Positions 1-2,491 of a stretch of 24,049 bases of DNA are shown here, piece after piece. The DNA is from an uncultured Candidatus Saccharibacteria bacterium (GTDB taxonomy: Bacteria; Patescibacteriota; Minisyncoccia; Portnoybacterales; GWB1-42-6): the NCBI GenBank assembly GCA_964647205.1, contig CAZYIG010000001.1, forward strand, positions 1-24,049. The letters are read 5' to 3'. Numbering within the stretch: position 1 is the first letter of the stretch; each line of letters opens with the position of its first letter. Under the pieces are notes generated by a model, which saw only the letters and a program-made list of their open reading frames with translations, had not been told where the DNA came from and ran no database searches. The translations under genes and the position numbers were made by a program.

Positions 1-1419
1 ATTCATGTTGATGAATACCAAGATACCAATCATGCCCAATATTCTTTGATCAAATTGCTGGCTGCCAAATACCGCAATCTTTTTGTCATTGGCGACGAAT
101 CGCAAAATATTTATTCTTGGCGCGGCGCCGACTTCCGCAATCTGCTAAACTTTGAAAAAGATTATCCCGAAGCCCAAGAGATACTGCTGGAACAAAACTA
201 CCGCTCAACCCAGAATATTTTAACCGCCGCCCACCAGATTATTATTAAAAATAAATTCCGCAAAGAAAAAAAACTCTGGACCGAAAATGAAGACGGTTCG
301 CCCATCACTTTGTTCGGCGCCAGCGACGAGCGGGAAGAGGGAAGTTACATTATTAACGAAATCAGACACCATAAAAAAAATAAACCATCTTTAAGATTGT
401 CTGATTTTACTATTCTCTATCGAACCAACGCCCAGTCCCGGGCGATTGAAGAAGCTTTTCTAAAAGCCGGCCTGCCCTACAAAGTGGTTGGCGGTTTAAA
501 ATTTTATGACCGAAAAGAAGTTAAGGACATGATTGCCTATATTCGGCTTATCCAAAACCCCAAAGATTCGCTGGCCATGGAAAGAATCATCAATGTGCCG
601 CCTCGCGGCTTTGGTCGAGCTAAGCTCGACTACAACCACGCTCAGCGTGGTGGCGAAGAAATAGAAATAATTGATCTAGAAAATCCAAATAAAGAATTAA
701 CACCTCAAAAAGCCCGCGCTTGGAAAAACTTTTCTGACTTGATGCAAAATCTGCGCGAATCAGCCGCTAAATTACCACTCAGCAAATTATTAAAATTAAT
801 TATTGCTAAAACTGAATACGAAAAATTTATAAAAGAGAAGGGCAAGAAAGAAGAAGGGGAGGATCGCTGGGACAATTTGAAGGAACTTTTTTCGGTGACT
901 AAAAAATATGACGTGCCCTCCGTAGCCTTGGCGGAGGAGGGTGAATCCTCCGAAGTCCCGCAAGGCGGGACGAAGGAGGGTGCGTCCTCGTCCGCTAATA
1001 CCTTAGCGCACAGAAATGCTATTCAGACTTTTCTGGAAGAAGCCTCGCTGATGTCTAATCAAGATGAAGTTGATACTGAACACAATTTGGTCAATTTAAT
1101 GACACTCCACTGCGCCAAGGGACTAGAATTCCCTGTGGTATTTATTGCTGGTTGCGAAGAAGGCATTTTCCCGCATTCGCGCAGTCTGATTGACGCCTGG
1201 CAAATGGAAGAAGAGCGCCGGCTTTGTTATGTTGGCATCACCCGCGCCAAAGAAAAACTTTATTTGATTGCGGCTCGCGCCCGCCAGCTTTTTGGCTCCA
1301 CCATAGTTAATCCGCCTTCCCGATTTTTAGACGATATCCCACCTCACTTGATTGAATATATTAACTTTGGCAATGATAAAGATAATTTGGATGAAGATGG
1401 GATTGAGAGACCATTCTAA
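1..1419 (+). CDS. pcrA: ATP-dependent SF1A DNA helicase PcrA/UvrD, 5'-truncated by the window edge
   Basis: Frame +1 is open from base 1 (IHVDEYQDTN, Walker B). Further motifs: VIGDESQNIYSWRGA, LEQNYRST, ILYRTNAQSR, LMTLHCAKGLEFPVVF, EEERRLCYVGITRAKE. The ORF-track start at 46 is internal. Confidence 0.97.
   Translation: MHVDEYQDTNHAQYSLIKLLAAKYRNLFVIGDESQNIYSWRGADFRNLLNFEKDYPEAQEILLEQNYRSTQNILTAAHQIIIKNKFRKEKKLWTENEDGSPITLFGASDEREEGSYIINEIRHHKKNKPSLRLSDFTILYRTNAQSRAIEEAFLKAGLPYKVVGGLKFYDRKEVKDMIAYIRLIQNPKDSLAMERIINVPPRGFGRAKLDYNHAQRGGEEIEIIDLENPNKELTPQKARAWKNFSDLMQNLRESAAKLPLSKLLKLIIAKTEYEKFIKEKGKKEEGEDRWDNLKELFSVTKKYDVPSVALAEEGESSEVPQGGTKEGASSSANTLAHRNAIQTFLEEASLMSNQDEVDTEHNLVNLMTLHCAKGLEFPVVFIAGCEEGIFPHSRSLIDAWQMEEERRLCYVGITRAKEKLYLIAARARQLFGSTIVNPPSRFLDDIPPHLIEYINFGNDKDNLDEDGIERPF
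612..651. repeat. Two tandem 7-bp-stem/3-nt-loop hairpins inside pcrA
   Basis: GTCGAGC-TAA-GCTCGAC (614-630) and ACCACGC-TCA-GCGTGGT (635-651). They encode GRAKLDYNHAQRG. Confidence 0.7.
912..941 (+). repeat. In-frame REP-like palindromic element, GNA-bulge family, 30 nt
   Basis: CGTG-CCCTCC-GTA-GCC-TT-GGC-GGA-GGAGGG; perfect 6-bp outer stem. Confidence 0.85.
942..980 (+). repeat. In-frame REP-like palindromic element, GNA-bulge family, 39 nt
   Basis: TGAA-TCCTCC-GAA-GTCCCGC-AAG-GCGGGAC-GAA-GGAGGG; perfect 7-bp inner stem. Confidence 0.85.
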
Positions 1420-1531: not shown

Positions 1532-2491
1532 ATGTCTTATAAAAAAAACCCCCGACAAGAATCAGATAAAAATAACATCCGTCCCAACAAGCTCCTCGGT
1601 CAGCATTTTTTGCATGATAAAAATGTTCTGGCTAAAATTATCGGAGCAGCTAATTTAACTAGAAATGACACCATTCTAGAAGTTGGGCCCGGACTGGGTA
1701 TTTTAACGCGAGAGCTGGCCAAGTATGCCGGCCAAGTAATCGCTGTTGAAAAAGATAGAGCGCTGGCCGAAATTTTAACTAAAAAACTAGCCGATGAGCA
1801 AATTGATAATGTGAAAATTATTGCTGATGATGTTCTAAAATTTCTAAAAACTAAAAACTATCAACCATCAGCTGGGTACAAAGTAGTCGCGAACATTCCG
1901 TATTATTTGACTTCTCATCTCATCCGTCTTTTACTGGAGTTGTCCAATCCGCCCCAAGATATTATCTTGCTGATTCAAAAAGAAGTAGCCAAGCGTATTT
2001 GCGCTTGCCCTCCGAAGCTCGAAGAGCGAAGGGGGGCCAAACCCCTCCACCTTCGCCAAGGCTCCGGCGGACAAGCAAGAATGTCGCTCTTGGCTATTTC
2101 CGTCCAATTTTATGCCGAGGCAAAAATAATTGCTTCAGTTTCCCGGAAATCCTTTCGCCCAGAACCCAAAGTTGATTCGGCGATAATAAGGATAACTCCT
2201 AAAATTCTTCCCCCTTTGCAAAGGGGGATTGAGGGGGATTTAAAAAACACGGGGAAAATCCTCCCTAACCCTCCTTTTACAAAGGAGGGAATCGCTAATT
2301 TTTTCACTCTTCTTCACGCCGGCTTTAGTCATCCCCGCAAACAGCTTCTTGGAAACTTAAGCCAAGGGCTAAAAATTGAAAAAGAGAGGATTGGCGCCGC
2401 CCTAGCTAAGGTAGGAATAAAAAATAGCCAGCGAGCGGAAACGCTGACCGTGGAGAATTGGCTAGAATTATCTAAAAACTTAAATCTTTAA
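1532..2491 (+). CDS. rsmA: 16S rRNA m6,2A dimethyltransferase RsmA/KsgA with palindrome-derived insertions
   Basis: LGQHFL, ILEVGPGLG (motif I), VIAVEKD, VVANIPY (motif IV), QKEVAKR, FRPEPKVDSA, C-terminal RAETLTVENW. Confidence 0.97.
   Translation: MSYKKNPRQESDKNNIRPNKLLGQHFLHDKNVLAKIIGAANLTRNDTILEVGPGLGILTRELAKYAGQVIAVEKDRALAEILTKKLADEQIDNVKIIADDVLKFLKTKNYQPSAGYKVVANIPYYLTSHLIRLLLELSNPPQDIILLIQKEVAKRICACPPKLEERRGAKPLHLRQGSGGQARMSLLAISVQFYAEAKIIASVSRKSFRPEPKVDSAIIRITPKILPPLQRGIEGDLKNTGKILPNPPFTKEGIANFFTLLHAGFSHPRKQLLGNLSQGLKIEKERIGAALAKVGIKNSQRAETLTVENWLELSKNLNL
2004..2036 (+). repeat. In-frame REP-like palindromic element, GNA-bulge family, 33 nt
   Basis: CTTG-CCCTCC-GAA-GCTC-GAA-GAGC-GAA-GGGGGG. 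Confidence 0.9.
2046..2075 (-). repeat. In-frame REP-like palindromic element, GNA-bulge family, 30 nt, inverted
   Basis: Reverse complement reads CTTG-TCCGCC-GGA-GCC-TT-GGC-GAA-GGTGGA; same inner GCC-TT-GGC hairpin as 912-941. Confidence 0.9.
2208..2291. repeat. REPIN-like inverted doublet of CCCCCTTT..AAAGGGGG palindromes, 84 nt, in frame
   Basis: Perfect 20-bp palindrome TCCCCCTTTGCAAAGGGGGA (2209-2228) plus TTGAGGGGGATTT, a 14-nt spacer, then an inverted diverged copy AAATCCTCCCTAACCCTCCTTTTACAAAGGAGGGA (2256-2290). Confidence 0.85.

Follow-up and report, generated by a model that had tools for sequence, protein, structure and literature searches.

The described systems that come closest to the two small palindromes considered here, which lie in frame within the rsmA gene of a groundwater bacterium, are the repetitive extragenic palindromic (REP) sequences and the REP doublets forming hairpins (REPINs), with their REP-associated tyrosine transposases (RAYTs), known from E. 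coli, from Pseudomonas and as GTAG- and CGTC-tagged REPs (Bertels and Rainey, 2011, PMC3116915; Di Nocera et al., 2013, PMC3733652). Short REPs located within genes are also known from several bacteria, often in uvrD or other repair genes (PMC3733652; PMC10969869). The window analyzed here, a stretch of 24,049 nt, represents contig C1 of a genome assembly (G000; 874 kb, 40% GC, 147 contigs) that, judging by its RsmA relatives, belongs to the Patescibacteria, near Portnoybacteria. Its two palindromes, E1 (2004–2036, plus strand) and E2 (2046–2075, minus strand), represent the same REP-like DNA hairpin repeat, here termed family B, in opposite orientations. As had been proposed in a first-pass annotation of the window, made from its letters alone, this is a multi-copy, non-autonomous hairpin repeat, and it is polymorphic between near-identical strains.

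Both copies reside in a single open reading frame (ORF) of the ORF list (1532–2491, plus strand, 319 aa), named rsmA/ksgA on the basis of PF00398 (RrnaAD) found in its homologues, the respective protein matching the solved KsgA structure 6ifs at an E-value of 1.8e-42. E1 (33 nt, sense to rsmA), defined by its sequence, its fold, a model match and its absence from the empty allele described below, is composed of a CTTG tag, a CCCTCC/GGGGGG stem with one T.G pair, GAA/GAA loops and the inner hairpin GCTC-GAA-GAGC, and it is translated as CPPKLEERRG. E2, the canonical 30-nt unit, antisense to rsmA and defined by sequence, fold and model match, is composed, on the minus strand, of a CTTG tag, a TCCGCC/GGTGGA stem with one G.T pair, GGA/GAA loops and the inner GCCTTGGC, and it is translated as LHLRQGSGGQ. 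The letters, the CTTG starts, the lengths of 33 and 30 nt and the inverted arrangement of one design had thus been read correctly in the first-pass annotation. Between the two copies, the host bases CCAAACC are retained (2037–2043, plus strand), matching GCCAAACC of the empty allele, and these, along with G2036, supply the host codons for Ala-Lys and the CC of Pro. A covariance model of the family, for which both copies served as seeds, recognizes E1 with an E-value of 3.5e-5 and E2 with an E-value of 1.0e-6. When folded as single sequences, neither E1 (z-score -0.55) nor E2 (z-score -0.28) does better than shuffled sequences, and the whole 91-nt region around them reaches a z-score of only -1.65, and so the case rests on the repeat family and not on the fold.

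A natural empty allele is provided by a contig of 2,525 nt from another sample (L001), encoding an RsmA protein (P0002) that lacks the insert and that is otherwise identical to the protein of the window, being 21 residues shorter. Over approximately 2.46 kb of shared DNA, the two alleles differ by the indels, by 4 changed bases beside E2, and by one single-nucleotide polymorphism at a contig edge. The empty site reads ATT TGC GCC AAA CCG CCC GAA ATG, encoding ICAKPPEM, which is the consensus in most RsmA homologues. Compared to this allele, E1 is inserted cleanly, as 33 nt at TGCG^...^CCAAACC (the placement of one C being ambiguous), and the target is not duplicated. In the case of E2, positions 2044–2079 (plus strand, 36 nt), comprising the copy and its changed flanks, including a second CAAG, replace the 6 nt GCCCGA, or, alternatively, a 30-nt insertion is combined with four substitutions in 9 nt; the GGACAAGCAAGA end of this segment is also present in the rsmA locus L002. 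The first-pass annotation had both elements removed exactly, to leave ICAKPPRMSLL: this stands for E1 but not for E2, as 36 nt stand in place of 6, and the compact loop does exist in nature, one residue off, as ICAKPPEMSLL. When RsmA proteins of the relatives are aligned, empty sites turn out to be common, and the orthologues that have the peptide also keep the DNA palindrome, with compensatory changes.

Two further junctions tell of the unit itself. On contig C8, a 30-nt copy is nested within the GA^AG internal loop of another family-B copy, with no target duplication. On contig C55 (C55:44–79, also L005:44–79), a 33-nt copy is found toward the 3' end of a LamG-like ORF, which on contig C81 has three uninterrupted paralogous sequences; here, too, there is no target duplication, and the copy brings an in-frame TAG stop that truncates the ORF, which shows that insertion does not always come without harm. 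In all three cases (E1/L001, C8, C55/C81) the inserted unit is exactly the tag plus the hairpin, and the absence of target duplication, as originally proposed, is borne out. The filled form of rsmA is gap-free in contigs of two independent runs. Other metagenome contigs match from 2046 to approximately 2078–2082 and then diverge, presenting loose ends. Microhomology or copy choice at the junctions was also considered: site 1 shares one base only, leaving it unsupported, and at site 2 a CCGCC repeat could have allowed it.

In the family-B unit, of at least 30–33 nt, a tag, (A)CTTG or CCTG, is combined with a 6-bp GC stem that encloses a 3x3 GNA/GAA internal loop and, further in, a small hairpin, often a C-GNA-G triloop. 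A loose regular expression finds 26 sites in G000 versus 3 in the reversed genome, and the same design is recovered by clustering of the GC-rich islands of G000. In 23 aligned copies of this genome, 94.6% of the stem cells are paired, versus 87% in shuffles and 43–60% when the partner is slid, and the stem changes are compensatory, with U-A, G-C, G-U and C-G, for example, all seen at one pair. The covariance model (R1), built from G000 copies only, has 36 matches in G000, the genome-wide scan called for in the first-pass annotation thus revealing further copies; these are mostly single, with doublets at rsmA (2004–2075) and at C2:19515–19623, and with a tandem in pcrA. The same model has matches in 47 of 60 relatives (0–58 per genome), in 61 of 150 evenly sampled genomes of Patescibacteria, in a Saccharibacteria genome of 0.5 Mb (17 copies), and in one genome each of Acidobacteriia (at least 133 copies), Bradyrhizobium (at least 25 copies) and Opitutia (17 copies). 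A search with a 19-base core of E1, in one genome per prokaryotic species, identifies at least 120 loci versus about 4 expected by chance, the matches listed including Bradyrhizobium, Mesorhizobium, Acidobacteria, Verrucomicrobia, Planctomycetota, Bacteroidota, Saccharibacteria and others. In 119 cross-phylum copies among the matches listed, the bases outside the search pattern extend the stem, with 85–92% paired and with covariation, and 42 of the 119 possess the 5' tag (CTTG in 26, CCTG in 16). Rfam 15 offers only chance-level, microRNA-like matches in the window (E >= 0.43 on 2000–2079), and none to the element itself in the four loci of other phyla that were compared.

With REPs and REPINs, family B shares an imperfect palindrome of 20–40 nt, a terminal tetranucleotide tag, G.T pairs in the stem, a lack of target duplication, presence in tens to hundreds of copies, some of which form inverted pairs, and an occasional intragenic location, notably in uvrD and other repair genes. 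It differs from them by the tag (CTTG/CCTG, not GTAG/CGTC), by the two GNA/GAA internal loops with an inner mini-hairpin, by not flanking Y1/RAYT genes, by the intragenic position of about two thirds of the copies in G000, and by the occurrence of one family across several phyla. The suggestion of a new size class, shorter than the Rickettsia elements, has to be abandoned, as intragenic REPs of 20–40 bp have already been published, including the Rickettsia palindromic elements (RPEs) RPE-4 and RPE-6, which are CGTC-type REPs (PMC3733652). With the RPEs in general, family B has in common, as a functional analogy only, that in-frame palindromic repeats in the housekeeping genes of a reduced genome result in surface peptides. 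RPE-1, reportedly described by Ogata and colleagues in 2000, is said to measure approximately 100–150 bp. Family B, unlike this element, is of 30–33 nt and seemingly of unrelated sequence, it is not restricted to one genus, it hits the same loop repeatedly, and it has an empty allele in an otherwise identical strain; it is by size (30–33 nt) and host (Patescibacteria) that it is kept apart from the RPEs.

The insertion sequences of the IS200/IS605 type (IS608, ISDra2) resemble family B in that a hairpin of single-stranded DNA is, or in family B would be, the recognized structure, in the absence of target duplication, and, as far as G000 and G177 go, in an orientation tied to the replication strand. 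Family B, unlike these, possesses no internal transposase, it is a single hairpin in place of left and right ends, and it has no conserved target tetranucleotide; compared to IS608, its better-folding strand is opposite to the strand expected for insertion. Another parallel is presented by the G+C clusters of the yeast mitochondrial gene var1 and by the double-hairpin elements of Allomyces, short GC-rich palindromes in AT-rich genomes that are optional, keep the reading frame of a protein gene, and invade empty alleles through gene conversion. These are organellar and belong to other sequence families, and the conversion was reportedly shown in crosses, whereas in rsmA it is suggested by one pair of alleles. 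Similarity also extends to the d(GCGAAGC)/GNA-triloop DNA mini-hairpins, reportedly studied by Hirao and by Yoshizawa: C-GAA-G occurs three times in family B, and 113 of the 119 cross-phylum copies listed (95%) have G-N-A as their inner loop. Those hairpins, unlike family B, are model oligonucleotides and hairpins of origins or promoters, not dispersed repeats. The C-GAA-G/GNA motif shows extreme stability and nuclease resistance in DNA (PMC13037366).

A special case is presented by the GTAG-14 REPs of Bradyrhizobium, described as having ‘large GCGG/CCGC loops’, self-complementary up to 27 bp, a loop variant of Bradyrhizobium only (PMC3733652). In Bradyrhizobium, a classical GTAG REP next to a RAYT gene holds a family-B element exactly within its loop, and the large loops of GTAG-14 are most likely the family-B element. 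Family B differs from the variant as described in being an independent unit that is also found alone, in genes and in other phyla. Overall, we have found no paper in the literature on a CTTG-tagged family, nor on in-frame hairpin repeats in the candidate phyla radiation, and the family is apparently undescribed; what is new here is the natural empty allele with the exact boundaries of the unit, the negative outcome for a RAYT, the evidence that a patch was transferred, the cross-phylum distribution and the replication-strand bias.

The wobble pairs, the triloops and the orientation of the copies point to a strand-specific hairpin acting at the level of DNA. Among the non-Watson-Crick stem cells, as read on the CTTG strand, G.T pairs outnumber A.C pairs by 18:5 in G000 (p = 0.011) and by 29:14 in the cross-phylum copies listed (p = 0.03). 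As DNA, GNA triloops and mini-hairpins of the GCGAAGC type far exceed their RNA counterparts in stability (PMC13037366). In genes, the CTTG strand is antisense to the mRNA in 14 of 21 cases in G000 and in 12 cases versus 1 in a sample of genome G177, and, with most of the intragenic copies being antisense, the mRNA usually carries the weaker complement. As to replication, the CTTG strand of the G000 copies is found on the C-rich strand 22 times versus 8 (p = 0.016), and on three contigs of G177, with skews of +0.28, -0.22 and -0.23, it is on the C-rich strand in 17/17, 18/18 and 8/8 copies (p = 2e-13). The cases in G000 in which replication and transcription are discordant number 5 versus 4. 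Genome G177 itself, of the Patescibacteria and with 31% GC (contigs C2, C3 and C4, loci L287–L293), has 71 model matches, and its bias follows the GC skew in 43 of 43.

Within G000, 22 of the 36 R1 matches are in long ORFs, and the hosts include gyrA, leuS (two copies), another class-I tRNA synthetase, a class-II synthetase, the murG/gltX region, a Mur ligase, recG, mnmA, a miaB-like radical-SAM enzyme, pcrA and rsmA, along with others. The idea that the element adds in-frame loops to housekeeping proteins is thus supported beyond RsmA, for gyrA, leuS, recG, pcrA, mnmA and the Mur ligase. The proposed enrichment of lengths divisible by three inside genes did not materialize (19/22 intragenic versus 10/14 other copies, p = 0.39), and, as the canonical unit is already 30 nt long, this comparison is uninformative. 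The insert site of RsmA corresponds, in the solved KsgA structures, to a loop of variable length, and in an AlphaFold2 model of the protein the predicted local distance difference test (pLDDT) score drops below 50 solely at residues 1–23, 164–180 and 226–247, the model being confident elsewhere. Residues 164–180 represent the E1/E2 doublet, which is thus predicted to be disordered, and the intragenic copies in general may be read as disordered extra loops. Residues 226–247 correspond to a separate repeat insert at 2208–2291.

How the doublet came to be in rsmA can be approached through its relatives. In a tree of 120 RsmA proteins, calculated with the insert masked, the state of the loop requires at least 14 changes, and the closest relatives of the window protein are all empty. 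The E1-AKP-E2 arrangement is present in three lineages (the window, L002 and L036), and single insertions are found at the same two positions, of the E1 type in P0056 and P0084 and of the E2 type in P0060, P0068 and L212. The doublet of the window shares 91% identity with its counterpart in L036 and 86% with the one in L002, versus approximately 60% and 69–77%, respectively, for the flanking gene. Stem differences among these doublets are compensatory (CCCTCC/GGGGGG versus CCCGCC/GGCGGG, GCTC/GAGC versus GCCC/GGGC), and the inner stem of E1, GCTC/GAGC, is shared with the rsmA copy of the distant L036 and with no other copy of G000, in which the best likeness to E1 is a partial match of 22 nt (20/22 identical). 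Judging from the identity of 91% for the doublet versus about 60% for the flanks, the doublet has probably arrived as a single short patch, recombined from another filled rsmA allele in a homing-like manner, and the suggestion of two exact independent insertions does not sit well with this pattern.

An alternative that we consider unlikely, though deserving of a hearing, is that two separate and recent insertions occurred de novo, in either order, from copies in the same genome, the changes beside E2 being side products of insertion. Such a scenario agrees with the exact insertion of E1, with the single E1-type and E2-type insertions at the same two positions in other lineages, with the L212 copy of the E2 type, which fits a clean 30-nt insertion into CCGCC^GAAAATG, and with flanks 100% identical to the empty allele. 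It would require, on the other side, two hits within 10 nt and four substitutions in 9 nt, with none in 2.46 kb of flank, which is less economical than one patch in one event, and it leaves aside both the inner stem shared with L036 and not with any G000 copy and the excess identity of the doublet, with its spacer, to L036. The same loop is also occupied by something else, as in L034:957–1031 and L035:714–791 a different hairpin family, of the CCTGCCCGCC...GGCGGGCAGG type, is found at the very nucleotide at which E1 is located. This family, with about 125 GC islands in G000, is more abundant there than family B, and its outer stem is like that of family B; the two may share one insertion route.

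Taken together, the reading that we favor, with some reservation, is of a REP-like repeat in multiple copies across phyla, a strand-specific single-stranded DNA hairpin moved in trans, with the rsmA doublet being a recombined patch. Family B would thus be a non-autonomous element acting as a strand-specific hairpin of single-stranded DNA, moved in trans by an enzyme that is probably not the Y1/RAYT of G000. In AT-rich, gene-dense genomes, copies would persist only where an insert of a length divisible by three meets a surface loop that tolerates it. In RsmA, A-K-P-P-E would be one such loop, filled repeatedly, and the E1-AKP-E2 doublet would have been imported into it as one patch from another filled allele. 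Mobility at the level of the family rests on the dispersed copies and on the three exact junctions. A number of observations weigh against this reading. Transposition is deduced from the pattern of copies, and the rsmA polymorphism, explicable by recombination alone, proves a presence/absence polymorphism, not a recent transposition. A donor of the patch closer than 91% has not been found, and rsmA alleles in the metagenome contigs searched are no closer than 62% identity. Four metagenome runs show the filled form and no skip joint, as seen in contigs, which mask rare variants. As to the strand bias, it is absent in genomes G116 and G121; the CTTG strand, which folds better, is found mostly on the C-rich strand, the template of the leading strand, and the active strand of IS200/IS605 behaves in the opposite way; and the bias may equally well be read as selection against a hairpin that is stable in the lagging-strand template or in the mRNA.

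A more radical version, which we regard as speculative and rather doubtful, has nuclease-resistant mini-hairpins spreading across phyla without a RAYT-type transposase, placed by a structure-directed process linked to replication or repair, with the filled sites traveling as homing-like patches, the element being a general writer of peptide loops in reduced genomes. The spots of placement would be those exactly after the CCA end of tRNA genes, those within hairpins of other kinds, in their loops, and certain loops of proteins. With regard to tRNAs, 24 of 123 cross-phylum copies listed (L038–L154) have an identical offset, their core being 2 nt from the tRNA 3' end, which points to a site-specific placement rule; the CCA of the tRNA joins the outer stem (CCANCC/GGN'TGG), all of these copies are antisense to the tRNA, and they follow nine tRNA types, in Alphaproteobacteria, Verrucomicrobia and others. 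In G000, 5 of the 36 copies are within 150 nt of a gene for a tRNA or a transfer-messenger RNA (tmRNA), versus about 0.5 expected (p = 2e-4), the respective positions being C40:1773–1817, C98:2394–2440, C84:1006–1041 and C2:19515–19623, and in a Saccharibacteria genome one copy is inside the tmRNA gene (L105). Insertion into hairpin loops holds for the nested C8 copy and for the Bradyrhizobium REPs; tried as a general rule of insertion into pre-existing loops, it was rejected, the complementarity of flanks having p = 0.72 in G000 and, weakly, p = 0.02 in the cross-phylum set. The empty site of L001 (858–925) is itself at the tip of a strongly predicted DNA hairpin in the coding sequence (z-scores of -3.5 and -3.2 on the plus and minus strands), the stem of which is not conserved in L002.

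As to the enzyme, the first-pass annotation had pointed to a RAYT or TnpA(Y1), and the corresponding proposal, of a minimal REP/REPIN-like element moved by a RAYT or a Y1 transposase (of the HUH class) of the IS200/IS605 type, reading CTTG and a single-stranded DNA hairpin, appears improbable to us in the light of the genomic data. G000 does encode four Y1_Tnp proteins of 225–237 aa with the H-x-H motif (L004–L007, at C3:2763–3476, C55:245–922, C81:1332–2036 and C81:2257–2961), resembling REP_Tyr_transpos of NCBIfam, at a score of 40 bits versus a cut-off of 80, and the tag with its hairpin, the lack of target duplication, the G.T pairs and the existence of a strand bias speak for such a system. 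Each of these genes is flanked by, and partly contains, palindromes of its own, of a stem-GTCSGAC-stem design, about 20 of which are present in G000, in three subfamilies, with stems matching the adjacent Y1 gene; they thus already have cognate repeats. These genes and hairpins of C3, C55 and C81 look like a small, separate REP/RAYT system in a genome of 0.87 Mb. When 38 Y1 loci (114 kb, from G000, 29 relatives, one Bradyrhizobium and one Acidobacteriia) were scanned with R1, with the filters off, no flanking family-B pairs were found, and there were two good single matches, at about the background rate. One copy is located 165 nt upstream of the C55 gene, and one is approximately 230 nt from a Y1 gene of Bradyrhizobium. 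Among the 60 relatives, Y1 is missing from 6 of 14 genomes with at least 15 copies and present in 5 of 13 that have no copies (Fisher p = 0.20), the rank correlation of copy number with Y1 count, not corrected for kinship, being positive and weak (rho 0.28). The copy-rich genomes without Y1 include G008, 100% complete in 3 contigs with 16 copies, and G019, with 47 copies, and in the 0.5-Mb Saccharibacteria genome the 17 copies are likewise present with no Y1 candidate. No conserved target is seen next to the tag, the 5' flanks being TGCG, GA, CCA, CATT or CTTG, with no consensus in the 23 aligned copies. Thus the Y1/RAYT genes of G000 are probably not the source of the mobilizing enzyme. Among G001–G060, genes for DUF559 nucleases are found in nearly all members of families f1 and f5 that are rich in copies, and seldom outside of them, a co-occurrence almost confined to these two families, thus confounded by kinship and a weak lead; in G000, no family-B copy is beside a DUF559 gene.

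That the inserts are selected modules, adaptive peptide loops or regulatory hairpins of the mRNA, and not selfish or neutral repeats, we consider very improbable. The doublet is more conserved than its host gene, the same RsmA loop has been filled in many lineages, and REPs have been proposed as RNA elements (PMC3733652). Against this, the unit occurs in at least 15 unrelated proteins as well as between genes, in both orientations and in several frames, the peptide is predicted to be disordered, the intragenic copies are mostly antisense, leaving the weaker complement to the mRNA, a strain without the insert exists (L001), and one copy truncates its ORF with a TAG stop. The weakest proposal, of palindromes made in place by snap-back or template-switch repair, or of assembly artifacts, may draw on the empty site folding as a hairpin (z-score -3.5) and resembling the element arms (TTGCGCC ... 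CCGCCCGAA), but it can hardly be maintained given that about 30 unrelated loci of G000, and loci in other phyla, have the same 30-nt sequence and tag, and given arms that are no copies of the local flanks, flank complementarity that is not enriched in G000, and assembly of the filled form independently in two runs and of the empty form in a third sample.

If the reading of a REP-like hairpin repeat moved in trans is true, then the ultra-small Patescibacteria, thought to be nearly free of mobile DNA, would be continuously remodeled by an element of 30 nt, adding loops of 10 residues to essential enzymes such as gyrase, tRNA synthetases, RecG, PcrA and RsmA. One element would then link the large-loop REPs of Bradyrhizobium, the tRNA-abutting hairpins of Alphaproteobacteria and Verrucomicrobia and the in-frame inserts of the candidate phyla radiation, and such a linkage without a RAYT would imply another route of mobilization. 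For annotation and phylogenomics, this would mean inflated protein lengths and spurious low-complexity peptides (SFAKATxGK, LRQGxGGQ), and also inserts that break assemblies and whose passage from one lineage to another need not follow that of the host gene. The natural pair of filled and empty rsmA alleles offers a direct handle for experiments.

Some further repeats deserve mention. In the Acidobacteriia genome with at least 133 copies (G064), many of these are located 15–90 nt from contig ends, and the repeat thus breaks short-read assemblies. In the window, another family-B copy is in pcrA/uvrD (912–941, plus strand, sense; found by the regular expression, with a model match at 909–944, E 3.7e-7), the host ORF containing UvrD_C, and it is followed in tandem by a second copy with a 7-bp inner hairpin (942–980, plus strand; found by the regular expression, with a partial model match at 946–983). 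The same gene has, at 583–661, twin perfect hairpins in frame, centered on GCTNAGC, members of yet another family, which is represented by about 18 islands in the genome. A second in-frame repeat doublet in rsmA (2206–2295), in the hinge of the protein, folds with a z-score of -4.2, has further copies on contigs C93, C16, C66 and C2, and encodes the residues 226–247 that are predicted to be disordered.

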